Part shown: piece after piece, positions 10,667 through 32,000 of the stretch
How positions within the stretch are numbered: position 1 is the first letter of the stretch
Layout of the letters: the number at the start of each line of letters is the position of its first letter
Source of the DNA: Acholeplasma laidlawii PG-8A
Lineage (GTDB): Bacteria > Bacillota_I > Bacilli_A > Acholeplasmatales > Acholeplasmataceae
Direction of reading: 5' to 3'
NCBI RefSeq assembly: GCF_000018785.1
Contig: NC_010163.1
Coordinates: 870,001 to 902,000, forward strand
Length of the DNA stretch: 32,000 bases
Translations under genes and position numbers: made by a program
The notes under the pieces: model-generated
Database searches by the model: none
Told to the model about the DNA's origin: nothing
The model's input: only the letters and a program-made list of their open reading frames with translations

Positions 10667-11283
10667 ATCGGTGTAATTTCTAATCGCTGATAGTGGGTTG
10701 TTACTACAAAGATCTCAAACCCACCTTTAGCAATTTCAATCCAAAATAAGTAGTTTTTTGCAACCCCATTTGTAATTTTACCTTCACCATAAAGATAAAG
10801 TACCATTTGTGTAGTTGGCTCTATAGAAACTTTAATATCAAAAGTTTCTATATCTTCTGTCTTATTATCATAGACATAGTCCATATTTAAGGAAGCAGTA
10901 AGTCCACTACCAAATACTTTATTATCTTTTTGAGTTTGTAGTTTGACACCACCACTGACCTTTAAGGTGTATGAACTAATTGTCTTCTTACTTGCTTTAT
11001 AATTATATGTAATGGGTGATTTTCCGTTGTTGTAATAACTAAAAAGTGTTTCAGATGTATAAGTAACTTTCATATTTTCTGTGACATAATAATGTTTCCA
11101 TCCAGCAAATTTATTACGCCCTAACTCTTTATAGGCATAATCATAATCTGATGGGGTAAACTCATCTAATAGCTTATTTGTACCTACTTTTGTAAAATCT
11201 TGAAAATCTGCATAACCAAAACTCGTTTGAGTACTTAATGTGATAAGTACAACCAGCAATAAACATATTAACTTAGTTTTCAT
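10663..11283 (-). CDS. Hypothetical secreted beta-rich protein (possible small aerolysin/ETX-MTX2-like fold)
   Basis: 206-aa ORF with a signal peptide (MKTKLICLLLVVLITLSTQTSFGYA). The composition is Ser/Thr/Tyr/Asn-rich. There is an alternating amphipathic stretch TLKVSGGVKLQTQKDNKVFGSGLTASLNMDY. RBS AGGAGG lies 9 nt upstream of the ATG. Confidence 0.6.
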   Translation of the reverse strand: MKTKLICLLLVVLITLSTQTSFGYADFQDFTKVGTNKLLDEFTPSDYDYAYKELGRNKFAGWKHYYVTENMKVTYTSETLFSYYNNGKSPITYNYKASKKTISSYTLKVSGGVKLQTQKDNKVFGSGLTASLNMDYVYDNKTEDIETFDIKVSIEPTTQMVLYLYGEGKITNGVAKNYLFWIEIAKGGFEIFVVTTHYQRLEITPI

Positions 11284-20555: not shown

Positions 20556-22099
20556 TTATTTCAATCTAATTGACTTTCTTCTTTTAATAATGAGTATGGA
20601 TGAACCAACAATTAATACTATCAACGTTAGTGTTACACGGATTATAATCCATATATTATGTATATTGGTAGAGTTTATATCTGTTTGAATTGGTATGGTT
20701 TCATTGACTCTAACTTGTGTTTGAATTTGAATCCATTCAGTTCCAGTATTAGCACTTAATGTAACAACATATACACCTGGTTTAGTCTCATTCCCCTCAT
20801 AATCATTTTGAGTGATTTCAATTTCTGTGTAATTAATCGTTAATAGATTCTTGATTAATCCAAGTAATTCATTTGCGTCATGTATATTGCTTGCATCTAA
20901 GTTAATTGCAGGTATTTTAATAAAAAATACTGGTGGGGTATTGTCTAATACCTCAATAAATACTTCTTTAGTTGCTTCATTACCAAATTGATCTTTTGCT
21001 CCTATAATTACTGTAAACTGTCCAGTTTCATGTTTTTTAAAATCACTTGATTTGATATATACTTCAATGAAATCCTTATCTATTTCATCAATTGCTGACA
21101 TACTTTCTAGAATCATTTCTAAATCAAATTGATCTTCAATATCAATGATATATGTACTTCACCAGTAATAATAGGTGCAACATCATCAATTACATAAATA
21201 TGTTGTCTAACAGTGACAGCATTACCATTGTAATCATCCACCATGATATCAACATAGTATTGTCCAACAATATGTTCATTACCTGTATAATTTTCATCAT
21301 CAATTGATATTTCTAAGTTCTCTGTATAGTTATCTGTTGCCTCTACGATGTCAATAAGAGTTCCTACATCAATTTTGCCGGCATAACTAATCCTAATATC
21401 TTCTAAAGGTTGGACAACAGGTGGTTTTGTGTCTTGGACCCACACATTGTAAGTATATGTTGTTTTATTATTAGATAGATCTGTTGCTTCTATTGTCACT
21501 TTATACAGACCTGGTTTATGTTTATTCGGGGTGTAATTATCATTTATTATAACGATACTATCCGTAATGTTTCCATTTTGATTGTCCCATGCTCCAAACA
21601 ACTCATTTAATTCTAGAATATCTAGTGGATACTCTACATCAACTTTTAATGTGATAGTAGACTGAACTCTAGAGAATTCTCTTCCTTTTACAAAGTACAT
21701 ATGAAAATTACCTAAATCTTCTAGTAATGTCGTATCCTCTTGACTAGACAATTTTAAGATGCCATCTTTATTATAATGAGTGCTATCTAATAAAATTGAT
21801 GTTCTTCCAACATAACTGTATATGATATTACCCGTATCTGCATCAGATACTACAAATGTTTCATATAGTGAATCTATTTTATATATATTTGGACCCATAC
21901 GACTCATCACATCATCATTAAATAAAATGTCATCAAATGCTGCTATATAGACACGGTCATGCGTCTCTATAAGTTCCATTTCATCCAGACCTTCTAGCGG
22001 TTTTAAACTCACTGGAAGTGCATGTACATTCGGTATCAGTGATACCGTCAAACAAAGTATACTTATCCATATAACTATCATTAAAAGCTTTTGTTTCAT
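20556..22099 (-). pseudogene. Surface protein with repeated Ig-like (DUF5011/HYR-type) modules, split by a 1-nt frameshift into ORFs 21119-22099 and 20556-21116
   Basis: The upstream ORF has a signal peptide (MKQKLLMIVIWISILCLTVSLIPNVHA) and repeat endings ...NVWVQDTKPPVV and ...IYVIDDVAPIITG. The downstream frame is open back to 21158 and reads STYIIDIEDQFDLEMILESMSAIDEID..., which continues the repeat pattern exactly. The downstream ORF ends in a TM anchor plus KRRKSIRLK. Confidence 0.7.
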
Positions 22100-22170
22100 A
22101 TTAAAATCTCCTTTTATTTACTTTCTACCTTATAGTAGAGACAAAATATAAAAATGACTTTTATTTTTGT

Positions 22171-22199
22171 TTGACAAATAAGTAAACTTGATATACAAT
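22171..22199 (+). promoter_or_regulatory. Promoter of tRNA-Lys
   Basis: TTGACA (22171-22176), a 17-nt spacer, then TACAAT (22194-22199). It lies 20 nt upstream of the tRNA 5' end. Confidence 0.7.
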
Positions 22200-22219
22200 G
22201 ATAATGCTTTATAAAAAAT

Positions 22220-22295
22220 GCATCCATAGCTCAGTTGGTAGAGCAACAGACTCTTAATCTGTGGGTCCACGGTTCGAGCCCGTGTGGGTGTACCA
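22220..22295 (+). tRNA. tRNA-Lys (anticodon CUU), CCA encoded
   Basis: Cloverleaf folded by hand. The acceptor is GCATCCA/TGGGTGT (with G-U pairs). The D-arm is AGCTCAGTTGGTAGAGC. The anticodon stem is ACAGA/TCTGT with loop CT-CTT-AA. The T-arm is CACGG-TTCGAGC-CCGTG, followed by discriminator A and CCA. Confidence 0.93.
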
Positions 22296-22307
22296 TTTAT
22301 ATATGAA

Positions 22308-22346
22308 AAGGCCATTTGATGAACATATCAAATGGCCTTATTTTTT
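22308..22346. terminator. Bidirectional intrinsic terminator (tRNA-Lys / S51 peptidase)
   Basis: 13-bp stem AAGGCCATTTGAT / ATCAAATGGCCTT with a 6-nt loop. It is followed by ATTTTTT on the plus strand and by TTTTCAT on the minus strand. Confidence 0.85.
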
Positions 22347-22364
22347 CGTTATTAAAATCAATAA

Positions 22365-23045
22365 TTATTTTACTCTCTTACCTTTTTCATAGTATTTAGA
22401 CGCCATATAACTATAGATTATTTTCCCATCTTCTATAATCATATATCCAGGTTCATAAATCACATAGATTGGTCTTTCATGATAGTGACTTGTACGTCTT
22501 AAACTCTTCTTTTGTTGTTTACGGCGGTTATAATGCACCTCAACACCAAAATCCTCTAATAAGCCAATACCATCACTTAATTGATATTTTTTATAGTCTC
22601 TATCTTTTGAAATATGGAACCAGTTAAATTGAACCATGGTCCCTGCAGATGGTCCCATGACTACTTTATTAGAGTTTTTAATGGTATCTAATAAGTTATA
22701 TTCTACGAGACGATTATAGAATTTTTCTGGTGCACCACCTGGTAAAAAGATGATATCTGCATCACTGACTTTTTTTATGGCGCTATCCGCTGTATCCTTT
22801 TTATAAATCACCCAACTCACATTATCCGGATCGATACCATAACTTAAAAACGGTTCTAAAATATGCAGATACCAAATACCTAGAGGTTGTTCATAACCTT
22901 TGTGATATTGATCTATCATATCATCAGACTCAAATTGTGAGAATGCTATTACGCATATCTTACTATCTTTATGAATGTATTTTTCTAAATGTTTTTTGAC
23001 ATATGGTTTGTCATAGATTGTTCTTGAACTTAATATATTTATCAT
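22365..23045 (-). CDS. Peptidase E-like S51 family / class I glutamine-amidotransferase-like protein
   Basis: 226 aa. It has IIFLPGGAPEKF and the nucleophile elbow VVMGPSAGTMV, typical of S51 dipeptidase E-like proteins. Confidence 0.7.
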   Translation of the reverse strand: MINILSSRTIYDKPYVKKHLEKYIHKDSKICVIAFSQFESDDMIDQYHKGYEQPLGIWYLHILEPFLSYGIDPDNVSWVIYKKDTADSAIKKVSDADIIFLPGGAPEKFYNRLVEYNLLDTIKNSNKVVMGPSAGTMVQFNWFHISKDRDYKKYQLSDGIGLLEDFGVEVHYNRRKQQKKSLRRTSHYHERPIYVIYEPGYMIIEDGKIIYSYMASKYYEKGKRVK

Positions 23046-23106
23046 GACCCTATTATACCTTATTTTTACATGATTTTAAAGTCTATTAGAGGTGCAATTA
23101 AAGGTT

Positions 23107-23136
23107 AAAAAAAAACACCTTCTAAAAAGGTGTTTT
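23107..23136 (-). terminator. Intrinsic terminator overlapping the last codons of the 118-aa gene
   Basis: On the minus strand: AAAACACCT, loop TTTTAGA, AGGTGTTTT, then TTTTT. The TAG stop (23124-23122) sits in the loop. Confidence 0.75.
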
Positions 23137-23478
23137 ACAGCATGCGCCAAGTGTTTGATCTTTCTTAACTTTTTCAATTAAATGTAAAATGACATCTTCA
23201 TCTAACATCACATGAACAAGCGCGTTCGTAATACCTTCACTTAAGAAGGATTCAAGTTCAGCTAAAGTTCTTAACTGTTTTTCAGTTTGGGTTTGAAGTC
23301 TGTTATCAAGTAGTTGATCTTCATGATCCATAACAAGCGCCAACATGTATTCTTTATACGCTTTAATATGATCGCATAACTCATCCACACTAAGTTTTTT
23401 TAGAGCATCTACAGTTGGTTTTTTCTTCTTGTAATATTCAGTTTCAACAAATGTCTTATAACTTTTTTCTTCTGTCAC
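23122..23478 (-). CDS. Hypothetical helical protein, 118 aa, with a C-terminal CC motif
   Basis: GTG start with GAGGT 7 nt upstream and an extended -10 TGCTACAAT. The protein is charged and helical and ends ...QTLGACCKTPF. No family was recognised. Confidence 0.55.
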   Translation of the reverse strand: MTEEKSYKTFVETEYYKKKKPTVDALKKLSVDELCDHIKAYKEYMLALVMDHEDQLLDNRLQTQTEKQLRTLAELESFLSEGITNALVHVMLDEDVILHLIEKVKKDQTLGACCKTPF

Positions 23479-23583
23479 TTTTATAACCTCTAATTGATAT
23501 GAAGTATTGTAGCATTAAACAAAATAAATGTCATGGAAAGTGGATTATAACTTATGAATTGTGTGAATTTCCGTGACATTAAG

Positions 23584-23610
23584 AAAAAACACTTACCATG
23601 GTAAGTGTTT
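23584..23610 (-). terminator. Intrinsic terminator ending the 29805-23629 operon
   Basis: 11-bp stem AAACACTTACC / GGTAAGTGTTT, part of the 20-bp palindrome ACACTTACCATGGTAAGTGT. A T-run follows on the minus strand. Confidence 0.8.
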
Positions 23611-23628
23611 ATAACTATTATTTTATGA

Positions 23629-23829
23629 TTAAGGTTGTTGTGTCACAATTGGTTGTAGTGTTTCATTTTCTATGGATTCAGGATAAGGATAAGCTTCTTC
23701 ACGTAAGCGTTTGAACATGACATAAATTAAACCTCTAGTCAAATCAAGTCTTGTTACGATACCCAAATCTCTTTCACCCTCAACACGAATTTTTTCACCG
23801 ATTAAATACGTTTCATTGCTCCATGCCAT
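23629..23829 (-). CDS. Hypothetical small protein, 66 aa
   Basis: RBS AGGAGA lies 8 nt upstream of the ATG. It is the last gene before the operon terminator. The translation is MAWSNETYLIGEKIRVEGERDLGIVTRLDLTRGLIYVMFKRLREEAYPYPE..., which looks beta-rich. No family was recognised. Confidence 0.55.
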   Translation of the reverse strand: MAWSNETYLIGEKIRVEGERDLGIVTRLDLTRGLIYVMFKRLREEAYPYPESIENETLQPIVTQQP

Positions 23830-23875
23830 ATGTCATTTCTCCTAACATTTAAACTACTATTTATTATACCATATT

Positions 23876-24919
23876 TCAAGCTAAAATATCTTTAATTATT
23901 TTTCCAATTACGAAACTATGGTTTCTATCCTTTATTCTTTGGAACCATAATAGTAATTGTTTTAAACTCGGATCTTGAATTAATTTAATTAATTGATCTA
24001 AATCTTGCATAAATAAAGGGTGATCCATATCATTTAAATTATTAATTAAACGTTTAGCTTGTTTACTTGTTTTAATTGTTTTATATAGTTTTTCTATTAA
24101 TGGGGGCATTGTTAAAACAGGTATACGAATCTTTTTACTATTGATATCCAAATTCATTTTATAAATCGCTAATATTTGCTGTTTGGCAGCATAATCAATG
24201 ATTTCCTGATACTTATCATCCTTCCAGATAAAAATCTCTTTAAGGAGTTTTAATCGATATAAAAAGCGGTGGTTCGAACCCTTAGATAAGTTGTTTTCAC
24301 GTAAGAATTTCCCCTCTATTAATTCTAAATCCTGTAGATTATAAACACCATTGAGTGATTGCTCAAATAAGGATACTAAAAGTCCAGTGGTTTCAGTCTT
24401 ATGTGGTGTATTTTGAAGATATCTTTCTAAGTCTATTAATACATTGTTTTTTTCTAGTTCGTAAGCATTCAAAACACTATCAAATGATACTGTTTGAATG
24501 CTTCGATTGATTTTCTTATCTGTAATAATATAGGTTATATAAGAAAGTTTATCTTTTGTAATTTCATCTTCAATAATGACAGAAAATCCAAATGAACCAT
24601 CTTCATAGTTTCTATTTGTTGGATGTCCTACAATATCATTACGTAAATATTTTAAATGTCTTAAGTTTCTATTTTGGTTGATGTTAACGTGGTATTTATA
24701 TTTCGTTGCTGTAAAAGAGAGTTGATATAACGCATCAATGGCTACAAATAAGCCTTGAAGTAACCCAAAAACGTCAAGTAAAATATCTGCTTTACTGGAT
24801 GCATCTCTAACTTTAAAATCTTCTATCATAAGATCCACATACTTTAATGCGGCTACACTACTTTCAGCTCTAATTTTTGCATCAAACGCTAAGTTTTCAA
24901 TTGCTTTTTCAATTCTCAT
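23876..24919 (-). CDS. Hypothetical 347-aa helical protein with an RNxxxxH (HEPN-like) motif
   Basis: It overlaps the 3' end of the 1006-aa gene by 11 nt. After roughly three predicted helices comes LKYLRNDIVGHPTNR (R93...H99, nt 24643-24623). This fits the HEPN Rx4-6H motif with Asn after the Arg. The rest is helical and was not recognised. Confidence 0.6.
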   Translation of the reverse strand: MRIEKAIENLAFDAKIRAESSVAALKYVDLMIEDFKVRDASSKADILLDVFGLLQGLFVAIDALYQLSFTATKYKYHVNINQNRNLRHLKYLRNDIVGHPTNRNYEDGSFGFSVIIEDEITKDKLSYITYIITDKKINRSIQTVSFDSVLNAYELEKNNVLIDLERYLQNTPHKTETTGLLVSLFEQSLNGVYNLQDLELIEGKFLRENNLSKGSNHRFLYRLKLLKEIFIWKDDKYQEIIDYAAKQQILAIYKMNLDINSKKIRIPVLTMPPLIEKLYKTIKTSKQAKRLINNLNDMDHPLFMQDLDQLIKLIQDPSLKQLLLWFQRIKDRNHSFVIGKIIKDILA

Positions 24920-27900
24920 TTGAACTATTTCCTTTGATTTTTATAAATAGCCTATCTGCAGTAATTGGTTTATACATATCACCTTGAATGTATTTGATGC
25001 CTAAACTATGAAGTACTTCTTTGTGTTCAGGTGACTTTACATCTCTAATGATAACTGCCATGTGATGATTTAGGAACAATTGGTGCATACTTTGAATATA
25101 TTGGTTCCATTTATCGTCCGTAGATTTAAAGTCCAGATGAAGTGCATTAAATGGATAGGAAAGGGCAGTTTCCACAGATGTTGTATCCAGTCCAATACCC
25201 GTATTGGCAAGTTCTGATATTTGATTTAAGTGCTGATTGATTTTTATATTATCACCCTTGACTTTAAATCGAATAAATTCAAAGGGTATACTATATTGAT
25301 GAAACAACCCAAAGATATAAGGATTAAAGTCTACACTCGTAAATGTTTCTTTAGAAATTGGAATGGTAATTTTAATGAGCTTAGTTGTCTCTTTTTCGAG
25401 TGTATGTAAAAACTCACAGACCATCTTAATATGATGGTGTTCTAACGCTTCTAAACGATTACGTTTTTTAGCAATTGCGTGTAGGTATTTACTATCTACA
25501 GCAATATTTTCTAAGATAAGATCAGATTCATATTGCCAAATAACATTTCTATCTAAATCGATTATTTGCTCAAAAGCAAGTGATAGTTGATTGGTTTCAA
25601 TCGCTTGATTTAAGTAGTTAATGACTTGTTGTTCAAAGACTTCATTTTCATAGATAGAATGCTCATAGAATATATAGGGTTCATCACTTGCTTTTCTTCT
25701 TAAATAATCTAGTGATAATTCTAAATATCTAAATATCTTACTTGGTAGTTTTTCTTCTGTAACAACAGGATATCTAATCACAGCTATTTTCGGTTCAAAT
25801 TGTTCGTAGCTTATGACTACAGATTCCGTGTCATTTAAGTATTTAATATATGCTTTTAATAATCTTGTCACACTTCGTATATCATTTACAGGTACATATA
25901 CAAACAATTGGTTTGTACCATATCGGTAAACTGTACCATCTTCAAAGAACTTTTGACTACGTTGACCAAACTCTTTAAAGAATTTTAATGCAATATCACT
26001 ACCATAGATAGGTAAAATAGATTCATTAAATGATATGAGTAAAAATGAACCTTTATCTTTAATGTACTTTTCAAAGTTATTATGTAGCGCATTTAAATTT
26101 AAAAGCGATGTTTCAAAGTCCACTGTAGCTTCTTCAATGAGTTTCATACGTTCATCATAAATATGTGTAATATCATCAAAGATTGAAATTACATGAATTT
26201 CATCTTGAGTAGCGATTGAAACAAGTCTTTCTTTAATTTGTTTATCTAAATAAACGTAGGTGACTACATCCATTAAACCTGCTTTTTCAAATAATCTTTG
26301 AACTGAATGTTCATAAGCTTTAATTTCATGAACACCTAGATTTCTTAAAAACAGCTCAAATGGTAAGTGACTATCAACATTGAGTAATTTTTGACTTGCG
26401 ATATTATAAGTTGATTGATGATTCGTCATGATACGTAGGTTCATTAAGTTTGAGTCTAGGATATGTCTTAAAAACGTATTTTCAGTACGAATATTACCTA
26501 TTTTCTCTTCATCCTTTAAACTTCCATAGATGATGGTTGAAATACCTTTAAATAGGTCAAAAAAGGTTCCTGGATCTTGTATTTCATCTTTTAGATATAC
26601 CATGAAGGCACCTAAATCATAAAGGGCAAAACTATAAATATAGCCAACACTTTCATCATATGGTTTACCAGTTAATATATTTTTGGAATCCATAAATGAT
26701 TTTGGTGTACCAAAACGCTCTTGACCATCTTTTAAGACATTATGAATGATGGTGTCATAATAACTTTGAGGTATCAGTTGCTTATCGTAGAGTCTTTCTT
26801 TTTTATAATGATAGAGCATATCATCTTTACTGGTAAAGACGATAAAGTCTGTTGCATCTACTACTTCAGATACACGCATAAAAAAGAGTCTTAAGTATTC
26901 TCTATAGTGTTTGTTATCATGGATTTGATGAGCATACCCAAAGAGCTCAATTAAGGCATCCATGTGATAGATATTTTCCTTAACTGCTGAAACTTTAGGA
27001 GCTATACTTACTTGATGATCCGTGACCTTAATGCCTGAATCTTTCTTTTCTTCAATAACAGATTCATTTTTCTTTTGTTTCTTTAATTCTTTTTGAAGAT
27101 TTTTTAACTTCTTGGCATAATTATCATAAAGAAATTTGTTTTTAATTTCCTCATAAAAATTCATGAAAAGTTCATAGGATTTTAATCTAAATTCAGGTGA
27201 TTCTAACTCTATTTTCTCACTAAAATCGCCATCTAGAATTGCTAGTCTATGTGAATCCTTTTCATGTACATAAACTTCTAAAAGCGTCATAAATGCAGAC
27301 ATTTCATGTCTTTTATCTTGACGATATTGATTTGCGATTAATTTAGCTTCACTATACTGATTTAATTGTAGTAGTGTTTTTAAATATAGTGGTATATACG
27401 TTTGTTCATAATCTAATCTTTTGAGTTCAGCCATCAAAGTAATGGCTTTATTTGGTTCATTTTGATTTAAGTAATTCACTAAAAGATCTTTTAATAATGA
27501 TAGTTTTATGTCATTAGGTAATGTATCTTGTAGTAATCTTTCGATATCTTCAGTATAATTTTGATGGGTTATCTTTTTAAATTCTAATAAATTTAAATCA
27601 GCTAAATATCTTTTATTTACCGGTAGTACTTCTTTACGATCTTGAATATAGGCATATGCAATATCATATTTTTCTAAGTTCATAGCAGATAAATAAATCA
27701 GTTCATAAAGTACTTCTAATTCAGGATTTTGATGATGTTGAATCAACTTCTCATGATAAGCTATACCTTCATTTAATACGATTGGATATGCTTTTAGAGC
27801 ATAATAGGTTTTCATTAAATGGATAAAAACTGTTTGGTGTTCCAAAACAGTTAATGTCTTATGCTCTATGAAATTTAATATTTCAGCAACGGATTCTTGA

Positions 27901-27929
27901 CTTGGCTGAAGGTTTAATATCTCTTTCAC
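24909..27929 (-). CDS. Large signalling-type protein: TPR-like N-terminus, coiled coil, GAF-like, PAS-like, degenerate GGDEF, degenerate EAL
   Basis: 1006 aa. The GGDEF position reads RYGTNQLF (residues 669-676, nt 25925-25902). The EAL position reads QYESDLIL (ESD at nt 25529-25521). DDFGTG is replaced by LDTTSV and EGVE by RDVK, while the terminal QG(D/Y) is retained (IQGDMYKPI). The N-terminal ~290 aa are helical repeats followed by a Lys-rich coiled coil. Confidence 0.7.
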   Translation of the reverse strand: MKEILNLQPSQESVAEILNFIEHKTLTVLEHQTVFIHLMKTYYALKAYPIVLNEGIAYHEKLIQHHQNPELEVLYELIYLSAMNLEKYDIAYAYIQDRKEVLPVNKRYLADLNLLEFKKITHQNYTEDIERLLQDTLPNDIKLSLLKDLLVNYLNQNEPNKAITLMAELKRLDYEQTYIPLYLKTLLQLNQYSEAKLIANQYRQDKRHEMSAFMTLLEVYVHEKDSHRLAILDGDFSEKIELESPEFRLKSYELFMNFYEEIKNKFLYDNYAKKLKNLQKELKKQKKNESVIEEKKDSGIKVTDHQVSIAPKVSAVKENIYHMDALIELFGYAHQIHDNKHYREYLRLFFMRVSEVVDATDFIVFTSKDDMLYHYKKERLYDKQLIPQSYYDTIIHNVLKDGQERFGTPKSFMDSKNILTGKPYDESVGYIYSFALYDLGAFMVYLKDEIQDPGTFFDLFKGISTIIYGSLKDEEKIGNIRTENTFLRHILDSNLMNLRIMTNHQSTYNIASQKLLNVDSHLPFELFLRNLGVHEIKAYEHSVQRLFEKAGLMDVVTYVYLDKQIKERLVSIATQDEIHVISIFDDITHIYDERMKLIEEATVDFETSLLNLNALHNNFEKYIKDKGSFLLISFNESILPIYGSDIALKFFKEFGQRSQKFFEDGTVYRYGTNQLFVYVPVNDIRSVTRLLKAYIKYLNDTESVVISYEQFEPKIAVIRYPVVTEEKLPSKIFRYLELSLDYLRRKASDEPYIFYEHSIYENEVFEQQVINYLNQAIETNQLSLAFEQIIDLDRNVIWQYESDLILENIAVDSKYLHAIAKKRNRLEALEHHHIKMVCEFLHTLEKETTKLIKITIPISKETFTSVDFNPYIFGLFHQYSIPFEFIRFKVKGDNIKINQHLNQISELANTGIGLDTTSVETALSYPFNALHLDFKSTDDKWNQYIQSMHQLFLNHHMAVIIRDVKSPEHKEVLHSLGIKYIQGDMYKPITADRLFIKIKGNSSNEN

Positions 27930-28807
27930 TTGAATTGCTCAATTTCCTTTAGTTGTTCTAAAAAGTGGCCAGCTAAACTTAAATACTTGCCTGCAATCAT
28001 TTCAAAATCTAAATGAAGTTTCTCTGATAAATTAATTTCATGTTTATAGGTTGCAACAATATGCCATTGTAACACTTGATACATTCTATAAAAACGTATA
28101 TGTGCAAGTTCAAAAGCAGATGGTGTACGTTCTAGATAATAACCTAATAATTTTTCAGCATCTTTAAAATCAATGTTTCCAAACGATGCAATATCATAGT
28201 AAGGGTCATTTAATCCAGAAAATTCCCAATCTAATAAATAGATTTTATCCCCTGATTTCACTAAATTAGAGCGCTGTGCATCACCGTGGCATAGCACTTT
28301 AGGTAATTTAGAAAAATAAGCATCATATAATTTAAGCCATTGCATCTTAAGTGTATAATACGTAGTTGATGGCTCTTTTTTAAGAAGCTTTTCATATCTT
28401 CTTAAACGTTCTTTTAATCCATAGTCTTCACCAGGTAATTTAGCTTGATGAAGTGTTTTTAATGCATTAGCTACTAATGGATAATCTGTTTCTTCCATAC
28501 TAACAGATAGCGGTGTACCTTCTACATATTTTGAAACTTTAACACCTGTTTTAGAATCAAAATAAACTAATTCTGAGTTAAGATTTAAAGCTTTTGCTTG
28601 TTGAATATGCTTTTTTTCAATACTTGGTTTAACTAAAACTTCACCACCATCACCAATAATTCTAATGACATATGGTTGTTCTTTGACATAGACCAAGTAG
28701 GTGTAGTTACTCATACCTCCTTTAAATCTTGAATCTACTCTTACATCTATTTCATTTACTTGAAATACTCTTGTAGCTATTTCTACGATTTTATCTTCAA
28801 TCAACAT
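27926..28807 (-). CDS. Choline/ethanolamine-kinase-family (APH-fold) small-molecule kinase
   Basis: 293 aa. It has GGMSNYTY near the N-terminus, the Brenner motif CHGDAQRSNLV, and LLDWEFSGLNDPYYDIAS. Confidence 0.8.
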   Translation of the reverse strand: MLIEDKIVEIATRVFQVNEIDVRVDSRFKGGMSNYTYLVYVKEQPYVIRIIGDGGEVLVKPSIEKKHIQQAKALNLNSELVYFDSKTGVKVSKYVEGTPLSVSMEETDYPLVANALKTLHQAKLPGEDYGLKERLRRYEKLLKKEPSTTYYTLKMQWLKLYDAYFSKLPKVLCHGDAQRSNLVKSGDKIYLLDWEFSGLNDPYYDIASFGNIDFKDAEKLLGYYLERTPSAFELAHIRFYRMYQVLQWHIVATYKHEINLSEKLHLDFEMIAGKYLSLAGHFLEQLKEIEQFK

Positions 28808-29243
28808 TTATGATGCTCACTTTCTCTTTTTCGTATACTGCGTATGTCTTATTCTTTTGTCCGGTCAGGGCACCTGGGTTTATAAATATAATATTATCAA
28901 TACTTCTATAAAATGCGTCATGCGTATGTCCAAATATGCAGATGTCTGCACCCATTTCTTTAGCCATCATGATTAATTCATTTAAACCATACTTTACATT
29001 TTGAAGATGACCATGTGTCAGTAATATGTTTAAACCTTTAAATTCAATGAGTCTTTCGGTTGGTAAATCTAGGTAATAATCCGTATTACCTTTAACAGCA
29101 ATCATTTTAGCATTTTCAATAGTTTGTAAATCTAAACCTAAATCACCAGTATTTAGATGTAAATCAAATGTAGGTTCTCGTTTCAATACTTTTTCAAGTA
29201 CATCATTTCTTCCATGTATATCGCCAGTAATCAATAATTTCAT
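28797..29243 (-). CDS. YfcE/MJ0936-family metallophosphoesterase
   Basis: 148 aa. The motifs ITGDIHG, NTGDLG, VKGNTDY, LTHGH and IFGHTHD are present. RBS GGAGG lies 6 nt upstream of the ATG. Confidence 0.88.
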   Translation of the reverse strand: MKLLITGDIHGRNDVLEKVLKREPTFDLHLNTGDLGLDLQTIENAKMIAVKGNTDYYLDLPTERLIEFKGLNILLTHGHLQNVKYGLNELIMMAKEMGADICIFGHTHDAFYRSIDNIIFINPGALTGQKNKTYAVYEKEKVSIINVD

Positions 29244-29805
29244 CTTTAGCCTCCAAAAAGTTGTTCAAAGCATGTCTTCTATGCGAATGTTCATCTTTAT
29301 AAGTTGAACCTAATTCACCCAGTGTTTCTTGCTTACCATCTGGTATGAAGATTGGATCATAACCAAATCCCATACTCCCTTTTAAGTTTAAAGCTATATT
29401 GCCTAACATGTTGCCAACGTATGTAAATATTTTACCATCAGGAAACGCAATTGCAATCGCACATACAAATCTTGCTTGACGATTTTCCTTATTTTTTAGT
29501 ACATCTAATACTTTAATATTATTCACAGTATCACCTAATCCACTATACCGTTTCGAATAGATCCCTGGTAGGGGACTTATCGCTTCTATAATGATACCAG
29601 AATCATCTGCAATGGCCACTTGATTAAATCTTTTAGCAAATGCTCGTGCTTTAATCTGTGCATTTGCTTCAAAGGTTAATCCGGATTCTATAATTTCTTT
29701 TTCATCTATTTGAAAGTCTTTTAATAAAGTGATCTGATGTGGTTTTAAAATACTTTCCATTTCTATGAACTTATGATAATTATTTGATGCAAATATTATA
29801 TCCAT
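29203..29805 (-). CDS. rdgB: Non-canonical purine NTP pyrophosphatase (RdgB/HAM1 family)
   Basis: 200 aa. The motifs IIFASNNYHKFIE, FEANAQIKA, IADDSG and FGYDPIF are present. The last 41 nt overlap the phosphoesterase gene. Confidence 0.88.
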   Translation of the reverse strand: MDIIFASNNYHKFIEMESILKPHQITLLKDFQIDEKEIIESGLTFEANAQIKARAFAKRFNQVAIADDSGIIIEAISPLPGIYSKRYSGLGDTVNNIKVLDVLKNKENRQARFVCAIAIAFPDGKIFTYVGNMLGNIALNLKGSMGFGYDPIFIPDGKQETLGELGSTYKDEHSHRRHALNNFLEAKDEIIDYWRYTWKK

Positions 29806-29912
29806 ATATTCACCTTTATAAAATTTATATCATATATAATTATATCATTATTATGATAACTAATGGTTTTCTAGTATAATAGATTTATTAAATACGTTGA
29901 GGAGATAAGCAC

Positions 29913-31115
29913 ATGTATGACCATTTAGATGAAATAGAAAATGAATTTAAAGAAATTCATGAAGAACAGAAGAACAAGGATGAAGTAGATCCAAAAATGC
30001 AAAAAATTTATAGAAATAACCTATTCTTATACTTAGCGTATATGATACTACCAATTATTCTTTCTATATTTATTTTAATCGCATTAACTGATATCGACTT
30101 TTTCTTTCAAGATGTGAACGCTAGTGAATTTGCAATCACTAATGCAGTCAATGATGTCAATGGATTACTGATTGTCGATCCAAACAATTTTGAAAATCTT
30201 GATTCAGCTTATGAATCTTTCTTAATACCGGTTGGAGCAGATGGTACCCATATCATTTATGTACACGCTTCAGCAACCTTTATTACAGATACTGACTTCT
30301 TTGATTCCGTCTTAGAAGGCGATGTTTACACCTATACATTGAAGGCATCAGTGCTCAATGATATCATAGATGGAAACATAAAAAAATGGCCTAATAACGC
30401 CCAAATTAACTTCCATATACCCTATGATGATGTTTCACCACTAGTGGCAGGTTCTTCTGTTGACAATATCATCGAATTGACCAAAGAAAATTCAGTCCCA
30501 ACAGTAGCTTTAAATGCAATATTCGCGTTTACATTAATGTTAATTATTGCAATTCCGATGGTAATCATTTCTAAACCAATTTTAATTGGAGACTTCAATT
30601 TATTAAAGGTAGATAATGAAAGTGTTGGCACAGTTTTAGCAAAATCTGGTATTGGTGTGCTTTACATGTTTGGTGGTAATATTGCTGTTGGTATTCTTGT
30701 CATGGCGATTTCTACAATGTTTCAAATCCCTGATCAAGTATCTGCAAATCAGTTAGCAATTAATTTAATGTTAAAGTCACCTTACTTTATTTTAATGATT
30801 ATTACTGCTGTTGTTATTGGACCTATTGTTGAGGAATTGGTATTTAGAAAATCATTCTTTGGTTTAATTAAAAATGAAAACTGGGCACTTGTTATTTCTT
30901 CACTAGTGTTTGGATTAATCCACATCTCAACTGAAATTCTTACAGGCGATATTGGTATGGTGATTGTAAGTAGCTTACCATATATTGCAGGTGGATTTAT
31001 ATTTGGTTACATTTACATGATTAATAAGAAAAACATTGTGATACCGATCATTGCACACATGGGTTATAATTTAATATCTGTTTTAATGTCCATGTTCTTA
31101 CTTTATGTTTTATAA
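29913..31115 (+). CDS. CPBP-family intramembrane glutamic endopeptidase (CAAX protease/Abi-like) with an N-terminal extracytoplasmic extension
   Basis: 400 aa. The C-terminal core carries the motifs EELVFRK, FGLIH and HMGYN. The N-terminal part has one TM followed by a soluble segment of about 130 aa. RBS GAGGAG lies 8 nt upstream. Confidence 0.82.
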   Translation: MYDHLDEIENEFKEIHEEQKNKDEVDPKMQKIYRNNLFLYLAYMILPIILSIFILIALTDIDFFFQDVNASEFAITNAVNDVNGLLIVDPNNFENLDSAYESFLIPVGADGTHIIYVHASATFITDTDFFDSVLEGDVYTYTLKASVLNDIIDGNIKKWPNNAQINFHIPYDDVSPLVAGSSVDNIIELTKENSVPTVALNAIFAFTLMLIIAIPMVIISKPILIGDFNLLKVDNESVGTVLAKSGIGVLYMFGGNIAVGILVMAISTMFQIPDQVSANQLAINLMLKSPYFILMIITAVVIGPIVEELVFRKSFFGLIKNENWALVISSLVFGLIHISTEILTGDIGMVIVSSLPYIAGGFIFGYIYMINKKNIVIPIIAHMGYNLISVLMSMFLLYVL

Positions 31116-31148
31116 AAATAATAGCAGCCAAATTGGCTGCTATTTTTG
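31115..31148. terminator. Bidirectional intrinsic terminator (CPBP / ankyrin genes)
   Basis: The stem is ATAGCAGCC(A) / (T)GGCTGCTAT with a short loop. It is flanked by AAAAATA and TTTTTG. Confidence 0.8.
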
Positions 31149-31156
31149 TATCGTGC

Positions 31157-32000
31157 TTAAATGAGTTGTCTAAGTACATTAACACATGCACTTAACTTAT
31201 AGTGCTGTGCATAATCAAATGCGTTTTGCTTTAATCTGTCCTTTTTTAATAAATAGCCATTATCAATAAGTGTTCTAAGTTTTAAGTGATCTCTATTTAA
31301 TACTGCTAGTGTAAGTATTTGATCATTTAATAAATTTGTATAATCTGGCGATAACTGCCATTCTTTTAATAGTTCATAAATAACGATGTCATCATTAATT
31401 TTTGCTAGATTTAATGGTGTCTCATAGCGTCTATTATATATTTCAACATATGCATCATACTTTAGTAAAAGTTGGACAATGTCTTTTTGACCAAATCTTA
31501 CGGCGTTAAACAGTGGTGTTTCAAAGTGGTCATTTAATAAATTAGGATCTAATTTATGTTCTAAAAAGTGTTCTACCATAGATACATTGGTTGTTCTAGC
31601 AGCATAATGTAAAAACGAATCTTTATTACTGTCTAAATAAAAGTATGAAGTCTTAGCGTATTCTAAGAGATATGTAACTACATCCATATGTCCTGCAAGT
31701 ATTGCATAGTGTATTGGTAATCTATCTTCATTATTTTTAGCTTTAGGGTCTGCTTTATATTCAAGTAGTAATTTAACCATATCTAGATTACCCTTATGAG
31801 CTGCCAAATGTAAAACTGTTTCATCACGGTTATTTTTGATGTCTACACGTGCATATTTAGCTAATAGTTTTTTAGCAATATTTAGTTTAGCTTTTCTGGC
31901 ACAATCAAAAAGTGCAGTTTCTCCTAATTGATCTTTTAGATTTAAATCAATTTCTTGATTTAATAAATAATCAATAACATCCATACTACTGCCTAGTACT
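31157..32000 (-). CDS. Ankyrin-repeat protein (5' end probably outside the window)
   Basis: At least 6 tandem ~33-aa ANK repeats are visible (GETALFDCARKAKLNIAKKLLAKYARVDIKN, DETVLHLAAHKGNLDMVKLLLEYKADPKAKN, RLPIHYAILAGHMDVVTYLL...). The frame stays open upstream of the first ATG (31984) to the window edge, and the sequence there still looks repeat-like. Confidence 0.8.
   Translation of the reverse strand, partial: VLGSSMDVIDYLLNQEIDLNLKDQLGETALFDCARKAKLNIAKKLLAKYARVDIKNNRDETVLHLAAHKGNLDMVKLLLEYKADPKAKNNEDRLPIHYAILAGHMDVVTYLLEYAKTSYFYLDSNKDSFLHYAARTTNVSMVEHFLEHKLDPNLLNDHFETPLFNAVRFGQKDIVQLLLKYDAYVEIYNRRYETPLNLAKINDDIVIYELLKEWQLSPDYTNLLNDQILTLAVLNRDHLKLRTLIDNGYLLKKDRLKQNAFDYAQHYKLSACVNVLRQLI

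Follow-up and report, generated by a model that had tools for sequence, protein, structure and literature searches.

Conserved operon of Acholeplasma laidlawii encoding a catalytically degenerate GGDEF-EAL protein and a putative HEPN-type ribonuclease

We analyzed a window of 32,000 nucleotides (nt) from the chromosome of Acholeplasma laidlawii PG-8A (NC_010163.1, positions 870,001 to 902,000), focusing on a compact cluster of six genes on its minus strand at 23629-29805; all coordinates refer to the whole 32,000-nt stretch. An earlier note, made from the sequence alone, had described the cluster as a single operon joining rdgB, a phosphoesterase gene, and a kinase gene to genes for a 1006-amino-acid (aa) GGDEF/EAL-type protein, a 347-aa possible HEPN ribonuclease (RNase), and a 66-aa protein. 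All six open reading frames (ORFs) were found exactly where that note had placed them, and the pairwise overlaps of the first five genes (41, 11, 4, and 11 nt), the 46-nt gap that follows, and a separate Shine-Dalgarno sequence for the 66-aa ORF (AGGAG, 9 nt upstream) were all confirmed. The proposed gene identities were likewise borne out by matches to Ham1/RdgB, YfcE/Metallophos_2, APH/Choline_kinase, and EAL. As had also been stated, termination is expected solely after the 66-aa gene, since the only minus-strand terminator-like hairpin of the region (23610..23587; 10-bp stem, U-run, -10.2 kcal/mol) directly follows that ORF. The features of the locus are given below in the direction of transcription; AF2 denotes AlphaFold2 models.

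29839..29847, minus strand: promoter of the operon, an extended -10 element, TGATATAAT, that precedes the rdgB ATG by about 35 nt (sequence and pattern match).
29203..29805, minus strand: rdgB, XTP/dITP diphosphatase of the Ham1 family, 200 aa (Pfam Ham1p_like, 1.3e-53; TIGR00042, 173 bits, cutoff 145).
28797..29243, minus strand: YfcE/YsnB-type metallophosphoesterase, 148 aa (Pfam Metallophos_2, 6.4e-25; TIGR00040 yfcE, 98 bits, cutoff 56).
27926..28807, minus strand: LicA-like small-molecule kinase of the choline kinase fold, 293 aa (Pfam APH, 1.4e-16; Choline_kinase, 3.5e-15).
24909..27929, minus strand: 1006-aa soluble multidomain protein (AF2; Foldseek; Pfam EAL, 2.3e-12).
27042..27929, minus strand: TPR-like helical repeats, aa 1-296 of the 1006-aa protein (all helical hairpins in AF2; profile matches).
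26160..26975, minus strand: two alpha/beta sensor-type domains, GAF-like and then PAS-like, aa 319-590 of the 1006-aa protein (AF2 secondary structure; Foldseek).
25905..25919, minus strand: GTNQL at the GG(D/E)EF position, aa 671-675 (translation; alignment to the DosP GGDEF region; family alignment).
24921..25661, minus strand: degenerate EAL-fold domain, aa 757-1003 (residue-level DosP alignment; Foldseek).
23876..24919, minus strand: 347-aa protein with a HEPN-like N-terminal domain and a C-terminal helical domain (AF2); overlaps the 1006-aa gene by 11 nt.
24410..24886, minus strand: HEPN-like domain, aa 12-170 of the 347-aa protein (AF2 secondary structure; hhalign to a distant family).
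24623..24643, minus strand: RNDIVGH (R93-N94-x4-H99), putative HEPN Rx4-6H catalytic motif (translation).
23863..23871, minus strand: promoter of the 66-aa gene, located in the 46-nt spacer and consisting of the extended -10 element TGGTATAAT (pattern match, conservation, and transcription start site).
23629..23829, minus strand: gene for a 66-aa acidic protein, probably an SH3-like small barrel (weak Pfam matches).
23587..23610, minus strand: intrinsic terminator, common to read-through operon transcripts and the 66-aa transcript (hairpin scan).

Relatives of the 347-aa protein were found in 165 species-level GTDB genomes (171 close homologues, all of about 350 aa). We compared gene neighborhoods, as the earlier note had suggested, by tblastn of the window proteins against the best 80 of these 165 species; junction lengths were obtained by ORF calling, which gave boundaries between the 1006-aa and 347-aa genes in 68 loci. 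The 80 loci, one per genome, were all from Acholeplasmataceae/Mycoplasmatota (Acholeplasma, Mariniplasma, Paracholeplasma, Peloplasma, and strain zrk7). Acholeplasma proteins were the best relatives. The top genomic match was the chromosome of A. laidlawii 8195 (93%); an identity of 93% between strains PG-8A and 8195 has been reported (PMC10805103). In a metagenome-assembled genome (CAZRJV01; L069 and L079), two copies of the 1006aa-347aa-66aa segment lie on different contigs, either by real duplication or through a mixed bin.

The order rdgB-yfcE-kinase-1006aa-347aa was kept in about 80 species-level Acholeplasmataceae genomes, and in each of the 80 loci the 1006-aa gene directly preceded the 347-aa gene. 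Their aligned segments were less than 200 nt apart in 78 loci; of the other two, one (L080) is accounted for by unaligned protein ends and the other (L052) has a spacer of about 250 to 300 nt. Where boundaries were called (68 loci), this junction showed a median of -4 nt, an overlap in 45 loci, a largest gap of 35 nt, and no insertion. Upstream, rdgB and yfcE overlapped in 62 of 63 loci, and the median junctions were -4 nt from yfcE to the kinase gene and +4 nt from the kinase to the 1006-aa gene. Downstream, the spacer between the 347-aa and 66-aa genes had a median of +44 nt and no overlaps, exceeded 100 nt in 11 of 63 loci, and took insertions of up to 6.5 kb. The tight coupling of the genes exceeds chance: it holds over about 80 species, with protein identities as low as about 30%. 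The 1006aa-347aa pair is the invariant, insertion-resistant unit, since its adjacency holds in all loci and its junction stays tight while the next junction takes insertions.

The other genes are attached to this pair to different degrees. The rdgB-yfcE pair was present in 63 of 64 evaluable loci, and Acholeplasma equifetale (L008), the one without it, still has kinase-1006aa-347aa-66aa. The kinase gene, present in 58 of 66 evaluable loci and missing from 8, is a dispensable operon member. The 66-aa gene proved loosely attached: it lay less than 200 nt from the 347-aa gene in 51 of 72 loci, was displaced by 0.3 to 6.6 kb in 10, and was absent from the locus in 11. The genes after rdgB-yfcE do travel together as a lineage-specific addition to that pair, as had been supposed. 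In view of the losses of the kinase and of rdgB-yfcE, however, the combination of genes stressed in the earlier note is largely a matter of promoter sharing around an invariant two-gene core.

Promoter sharing may even be the whole explanation. In this main rival account, unrelated housekeeping genes are packed behind one promoter in a streamlined genome, the 1006-aa and 347-aa proteins act independently, and their adjacency is inherited synteny. Indeed, flanking genes with no evident connection to the locus (for an ankyrin-repeat protein, an Rce1-like CAAX protease, and an S51 peptidase) are syntenic too, the kinase can be lost with the rest of the locus unaffected, no gene fusion or interaction evidence was found, and the rdgB-yfcE adjacency, seen in the ysnA-ysnB pair of Bacillus subtilis, is presumably widespread in Firmicutes without the other genes. 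However, no junction of the region is tighter or resists insertions better than that of the 1006aa-347aa pair, whereas the next one has insertions in 11 of 63 loci; loss of rdgB-yfcE or of the kinase leaves the pair in place; and both families were recovered only from Acholeplasmatales-type genomes. We therefore regard promoter sharing alone as unlikely, if still an account to be reckoned with. Even if the genes were unrelated passengers, the locus would document an extreme operon compaction conserved across a bacterial family.

The ankyrin-repeat gene itself (31157-31984, minus strand; Pfam Ank_4, 1e-35) lies upstream of the operon and is syntenic in nearly all Acholeplasmataceae loci at 35 to 95% identity, mostly about 50%, which is unusual for a core bacterial gene.

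We further examined how the locus is transcribed. Two perfect extended -10 elements were detected on the minus strand, one upstream of rdgB and the other in the spacer before the 66-aa gene; a sigma-70 scan requiring a -35 element missed both of these real promoters, whereas the extended -10 pattern detected both. Such an element was found within 120 nt upstream of rdgB in 56 of 62 loci, and the one before the 66-aa gene was conserved in 47 of 53 orthologous spacers, compared with a frequency of 1.35% in 70-nt control windows taken from within the 1006-aa gene. Promoters of A. laidlawii have been described as a TAWAAT -10 box with a TRTG extension, based on 607 mapped transcription start sites (TSSs) (Fisunov et al., PMC5138195). 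Table S1 of that study gives minus-strand TSSs in PG-8A at 893046 (ACL_0862), 893499 (ACL_0863), 893857 (ACL_0864), and 899832 (ACL_0869), and a divergent plus-strand TSS at 899888 (ACL_0870); none is listed for ACL_0865-0868 (PMC5138195). In the same data, the TSS signal goes up about 2-fold upon heat shock. Since the published spacings (453, 358, 5975, and 56 nt) agree with those predicted from the window promoters (454, 357, 5976, and 55 nt), ACL_0869 is rdgB, ACL_0868 is yfcE, ACL_0867 is the kinase gene, ACL_0866 encodes the 1006-aa protein, ACL_0865 the 347-aa protein, and ACL_0864 the 66-aa protein. A literature search for ACL_0864-0869 found no paper, and no essentiality data were found.

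With TSSs at ACL_0869 and ACL_0864 and none at ACL_0865-0868, the transcription unit is a five-gene operon followed by a separately promoted 66-aa gene, which can also receive read-through from the operon because no terminator lies between. This revises two points of the earlier note. It had seen no obvious internal promoter, and TGGTATAAT in the 46-nt spacer is conserved and coincides with the TSS of ACL_0864; it had counted six genes as one unit, and the sixth has its own promoter and is displaced or absent in a good number of loci. The same observations (own promoter and TSS, displacement in 10 of 72 loci, absence in 11 of 72) led us to reject the 66-aa protein as an antitoxin or obligatory partner. 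This protein is 55 to 100% identical across loci, making its gene the most conserved of the neighborhood, and gave weak SH3-type Pfam matches (9e-4 and 3e-3); a sequence and profile search of the PDB returned no match for it. In the complete genome of strain zrk7 (CP076021.1; L060, about 11043-11237), its orthologue carries an in-frame stop at a conserved Glu (YPYP*AIDQ), which may reflect a pseudogene, a sequencing error, or recoding.

The first three genes of the operon are probably promoter-sharing passengers. The Ham1/RdgB and YfcE-family genes are adjacent and overlapping, as in the RdgB-YsnB pair, and differ from that arrangement in that three more genes are appended, in Acholeplasmataceae only. 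The kinase scored above the Pfam gathering thresholds for Choline_kinase (56.5 bits versus 29) and APH (61.4 versus 23.2), and retains the catalytic motifs HGDAQRSN (HxDxxxxN) and DWE of the choline/ethanolamine kinase family. Its best solved relative is PDB entry 4R77 (5.6e-26), deposited as "Choline kinase," which we take to be LicA of Streptococcus pneumoniae. The resemblance to LicA thus covers the solved structure, both Pfam matches, and the HGDxxxxN and DWE motifs; unlike licA, the window gene has no licB, licC, or licD nearby, and its product reached no NCBIfam equivalog cutoff.

The 1006-aa protein belongs by fold to the tandem GGDEF-EAL proteins. Its AF2 model (predicted local distance difference test score [pLDDT], 84) consists of helical repeats (aa 1-296), a disordered linker (288-318), two alpha/beta domains (319-590), a GGDEF-like domain (600-750), and an EAL-like domain (757-1003), and no hydrophobic segment was found in the protein. 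Foldseek matched the model to DosP (1e-22), the PAS-GGDEF-EAL protein RbdA (PA0861; 5e-20), MorA, PA0575, LapD, and FimX; the alignments to PAS-GGDEF-EAL proteins spanned about 560 to 840 columns, and the EAL region reached TM-scores of 0.7 to 0.8 against EAL domains. Pfam EAL (PF00563) was matched with 47.3 bits against a cutoff of 31.3 (2.3e-12). The Pfam GGDEF model gave no match, and that fold is backed by the Foldseek alignments to GGDEF-EAL tandems. The Pfam TPR models gave none either; the family profile matched a designed consensus TPR (7obi, 1.9e-4) and a PPR protein, although the single sequence had no match in the PDB. The label of TPR/GAF/PAS/degenerate GGDEF/degenerate EAL given to this protein in the earlier note holds, with the GAF part resting only on predicted secondary structure.

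Both domains are degenerate, the EAL domain lacking most of its catalytic and metal-binding residues, as had been suspected and as was found in the family alignment, the DosP alignment, and the translation. The GGDEF motif is replaced by GTNQL in the window and by STYQL, DYHQL, and similar sequences in orthologues, and by residue counting on the window sequence the RxxD I-site position reads FEDG. At the EAL motif the sequence is YESDLIL, with no Arg of EALxR. Compared with active DosP, the changes are EAL to ES(D), N to P, ExxE to KxxG, DDFG to TT/TS, KxD to HxD, and EGVE to RDVK, and of the catalytic and metal-binding residues the first Glu, the KxD Asp, and the Gln alone are retained. The family has its own invariant motifs, KKERLYDK (with invariant E378, R379, L380, D382, and K383 in the 319-590 region), RYP, and the basic IAKKRNR. 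The last (25455-25475, aa 819-825) stands where canonical EAL domains have an acidic loop (PLAEEIGEI in DosP), and it might bind phosphate or nucleic acid.

LapD and FimX work through control of partner proteins and not through catalysis. The 1006-aa protein resembles them in its tandem GGDEF-EAL fold, the loss of catalytic residues, and the sensor domains ahead of the tandem (Foldseek, 1e-14 to 1e-9). It differs from them in being soluble, in its TPR-like N-terminal domain and own motifs (KKERLYDK, IAKKRNR), in lacking the RxxD I-site and the EALxR arginine, which makes cyclic di-GMP (c-di-GMP) binding doubtful, and in that its putative partner is RNase-like. A. laidlawii encodes 14 GGDEF/EAL proteins (PMC2408644), and a signaling network of this kind therefore exists in the organism.

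The 347-aa protein was modeled with high confidence (pLDDT, 90.3; predicted template-modeling score, 0.87). Its N-terminal part comprises helices H1 (12-37) and H2 (43-72), a conserved loop, H3 (84-98), a three-stranded beta insert (110-145), and H4 (146-169), and is followed by an all-helical C-terminal domain. At the level of secondary structure, this order of the helices, with H3 ending at H99, fits a HEPN bundle. The motif R93-N94-D-I-V-G-H99 (Rx5H), with Asn after the Arg, lies at the C-terminal end of H3, and RNDxxGH was invariant in 27 of 27 aligned members, 120 of 120 close matches, and 80 of 80 full-length representatives at 50% identity. Besides, D62 in helix 2 is likewise invariant in these three sets and has a nearly invariant Asp counterpart in a distant family described below. 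HEPN active sites have been characterized by Rx4-6H with a polar residue, usually Asn, after the Arg, by a conserved acidic residue in helix 2, and by insertions that separate helix 2 from helix 3 (Anantharaman et al. 2013, PMC3710099), and the 347-aa protein agrees with these points. Two isolated sub-threshold Pfam matches, independent of each other, were to HEPN-type families (DUF4145 in 1 of 27 members, E of 0.032; HEPN_AbiU2 in 1 of 33, E of 0.027). The early suggestion of a HEPN RNase is strengthened by the invariant Rx5H and Asn, the helix 2 Asp, and the distant homologues in restriction-modification (R-M) and toxin-antitoxin (TA) islands. HEPN membership is supported by motif, topology, and context, and not by homology statistics, because no established HEPN family or structure was matched significantly.

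Helix 2 also contains a stretch (aa 46-64; 24728-24784, ILLDVFGLLQGLFVAIDAL) whose Kyte-Doolittle hydrophobicity over 19 residues is 2.0, a value seen in membrane helices, and which is modeled as buried in the bundle. We rejected a membrane protein, as the stretch belongs to helix 2, which is conserved, carries polar residues, and forms part of a confidently modeled bundle, and keep this point as a caveat. A HEPN-MNT toxin-antitoxin pair was also rejected, as Pfam found no MNT or nucleotidyltransferase domain in the eight proteins scanned.

The conserved site may serve some purpose other than RNA cleavage, with RNDxxGHPT and the Asp binding a ligand or catalyzing another reaction, and the protein serving the degenerate GGDEF-EAL protein as its adaptor or output, or being associated with the membrane through helix 2. 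Consistent with this, the conserved signature (GHPTxRxY...GFS) extends beyond the HEPN motif, helix 2 is as hydrophobic as described, no HEPN family or structure is matched significantly, and some HEPN domains are known to be noncatalytic and to function in binding (PMC3710099). Noncatalytic HEPN domains, however, typically lose Rx4-6H (PMC3710099), whereas R, N, and H are invariant here under strong purifying selection; moreover, the 347-aa protein is basic (pI 9.05), and helix 2 bears the invariant polar residues D62 and Q55, modeled inside the bundle at pLDDT above 90. We consider a non-nuclease decidedly improbable.

An exhaustive profile search with the 347-aa family collected 396 proteins, comprising 84 full-length members and, further out, a tail of roughly 315-aa proteins with only the N-terminal domain in common. 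This distant family aligned to the 347-aa family over residues 14-174 (hhalign probability, 99.55%; E, 2e-23), retains the motifs YGLLQALF..QQDA and IRNDxxGHPT, and is scattered over Eisenbacteria, Acidobacteria, the candidate phyla radiation, Spirochaetes, and Gammaproteobacteria; its members are unnamed throughout, and PADLOC, NCBIfam, and PHROGs gave nothing meaningful for them. Three lay on contigs too short for gene context. Among the others, one is inside a type I R-M operon (HsdM-PIN-...-X-HsdS-PIN-HsdR), one is flanked by an HsdM fragment, Fic, and a transposase and, on its opposite side, by HsdS, an AAA ATPase, and DarT-Macro, one adjoins an MmeI-type R-M system, transposases, and RhuM, and one lies among VapBC, ParB, BrnT, and Phd. 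Others are on plasmids, in Marinobacter near SIR2 and insertion sequence elements and in Shewanella on a conjugative plasmid near HigB. No GGDEF/EAL gene neighbored any distant relative with context. R-M and TA contexts of this kind have been described for PrrC, DUF4145, and similar HEPN nucleases (PMC3710099). A small unannotated same-strand ORF of 74 to 152 aa often precedes the distant relative (L081, L085, L086, L088, L089, and L090) and could be a partner or antitoxin gene.

These surroundings raise the question of defense, and the earlier note had indeed likened the locus to abortive infection. One may imagine a lineage-fixed anti-phage or abortive-infection system in which infection is sensed by the 1006-aa protein, which then releases the HEPN RNase to arrest the cell. 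The distant relatives in R-M, TA, and defense islands and on plasmids accord with this; HEPN nucleases are typical abortive infection (Abi) effectors (PMC3710099), and A. laidlawii is a classical mollicute-virus host (PMC10805103). The distribution of the locus points the other way. Patchy or mobile occurrence was seen only for the distant relatives of about 315 aa, whereas the locus is single-copy and syntenic, with conserved flanks, in every Acholeplasmataceae genome retrieved, and all 80 loci occupy the same chromosomal position with no mobile-element context. Its proteins diverge about as much as rdgB or the kinase (35 to 45% identity), unlike a fast-evolving defense gene, and it lies downstream of housekeeping genes in an operon that is weakly but constitutively transcribed. 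A search for defense systems, which had been recommended, gave no meaningful match: PADLOC-DB v2 had none for the kinase, the 347-aa, and the 66-aa proteins, and only weak partial ones (E of at least 2.6e-4) for the 1006-aa protein and YfcE. Given where the locus occurs and the absence of a meaningful PADLOC match, we judge a fixed abortive-infection system unlikely and allow it only a slim chance. The companion statement, that no described system has this composition, stood, as none was matched in Pfam, NCBIfam, PADLOC, or PHROGs.

Compared with the HEPN nucleases of R-M, Abi, and TA loci (PrrC/RloC, DUF4145, and AbiU2 types), the 347-aa family is similar in that beta elements follow its motif, as in Csx1, where a beta-hairpin comes directly after the HEPN motif (PMC3710099), and in that its distant relatives sit inside hsdM/S/R operons and TA islands. 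It is dissimilar in showing no significant profile or fold match to those families, in being core, syntenic, single-copy, and coupled to a GGDEF/EAL-type protein, and in having no R-M, MNT, or ATPase partners. With the ligand-gated HEPN RNases (Csm6/Csx1-CARF, and RNase L and Ire1 with their kinase/pseudokinase-KEN architecture), the locus would share the concept of a nuclease under a nucleotide- or ligand-sensing module, and kinase-fold and ankyrin-repeat genes happen to lie in the window neighborhood. In contrast to those enzymes, sensor and nuclease are on separate polypeptides here, the sensor is of the GGDEF/EAL type and not CARF, SAVED, or a kinase, the kinase is LicA-like and dispensable, and the ankyrin gene is a separate transcription unit.

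We propose, tentatively and at somewhat less than an even chance, that the locus is a vertically inherited core operon containing a sensor-gated HEPN-type RNase pair, with the nuclease domain domesticated and the other genes sharing the promoter. The five genes rdgB-yfcE-kinase-1006aa-347aa would be expressed on one transcript from the extended -10 promoter upstream of rdgB, with rdgB, yfcE, and the kinase as housekeeping genes on that promoter, and the 66-aa gene, driven by its own, would have only the terminator in common with the operon. The functional unit would be the translationally coupled last pair. In it, the 1006-aa protein may be a soluble sensor or scaffold, in which the TPR-like repeats dock proteins, the GAF/PAS-like domains sense a ligand, and the noncatalytic GGDEF-EAL tandem serves as a signaling or regulatory module. 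For the 347-aa protein, the N-terminal HEPN-type domain is predicted to be an endoribonuclease that needs no metal and has R93, N94, and H99 plus D62 as its putative site, and the C-terminal helical domain would be a lineage-specific part. The sensor might bind the RNase and gate RNA cleavage on or off upon an intracellular signal; c-di-GMP is a possible one, not supported by the binding-site residues. The RNase domain may stem from a stand-alone family of defense and TA islands and may have been domesticated in the ancestor of Acholeplasmataceae.

Several results weigh against this proposal, the main caveat being that general synteny contributes to the conservation, since the ankyrin and CAAX-protease genes are likewise syntenic family-wide. 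No gene fusion links the pair among 150 representatives. For the 347-aa family, Pfam, NCBIfam, PADLOC, and PHROGs gave nothing above threshold, the PDB sequence and profile search of the protein gave no match, and Foldseek of the model against PDB and BFVD gave nothing below an E of 1e-3, with all TM-scores below 0.2. The very hydrophobic helix 2 could indicate membrane association. Judging from the residues, c-di-GMP binding by the 1006-aa protein is not supported because the RxxD I-site and the EALxR Arg are missing, and a c-di-GMP receptor was rejected on the same ground.

A more specific scenario, to which we give a small probability, is that a defense-island HEPN nuclease was captured by the Acholeplasmataceae ancestor and turned into a core signal-gated RNase under a degenerate GGDEF-EAL/PAS/GAF/TPR protein. 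In its boldest version, the YfcE-type phosphoesterase and the kinase would process the 2',3'-cyclic-phosphate and 5'-OH ends left by the nuclease, and the operon would be an RNA cut-and-heal cassette. If true, the capture would be the first link between GGDEF/EAL-type signaling hardware and regulated RNA cleavage. The locus as proposed above would add to the HEPN nucleases an uncatalogued family absent from Pfam, NCBIfam, PADLOC, and PHROGs, and would exemplify a defense or toxin domain fixed as a core gene. It would also suggest RNA cleavage as a new output of degenerate GGDEF/EAL proteins, in wall-less bacteria with reduced regulation, and present a HEPN-type effector with a new kind of partner. 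A. laidlawii lends itself to testing this, being culturable, with TSS data (PMC5138195) and recently rebuilt tools for transformation, plasmids, and Tn5 (PMC10805103).

Some further features were noted downstream of the locus. The 118-aa protein at 23122-23478 (minus strand), equivalent to ACL_0863, was assigned no function by the domain search; its gene has its own mapped TSS and terminator and adjoins the 66-aa gene only in Acholeplasma-proper loci. For the S51-peptidase-like gene (22365-23080), the predicted -10 box ends at 23052, which places the TSS at about 23045, the A of the ATG; the PG-8A TSS at 893046 (ACL_0862) fits this spacing, suggesting a leaderless mRNA. An Rfam scan of 22000-31200 found no RNA element besides tRNA-Lys(CTT) at 22220-22295 (plus strand), which is preceded by a near-consensus promoter (TTGACA-17-TACAAT, 22171-22199) and followed by its own terminator (22308-22339). 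A 61-aa ORF antisense to this tRNA (22130-22315, minus strand) is almost certainly spurious. Finally, two adjacent ORFs at 20556-22099 (minus strand) probably encode surface proteins with bacterial Ig-like repeats (Big_3_3 and InlK_D3, both sub-threshold), the first of them having a C-terminal hydrophobic anchor.

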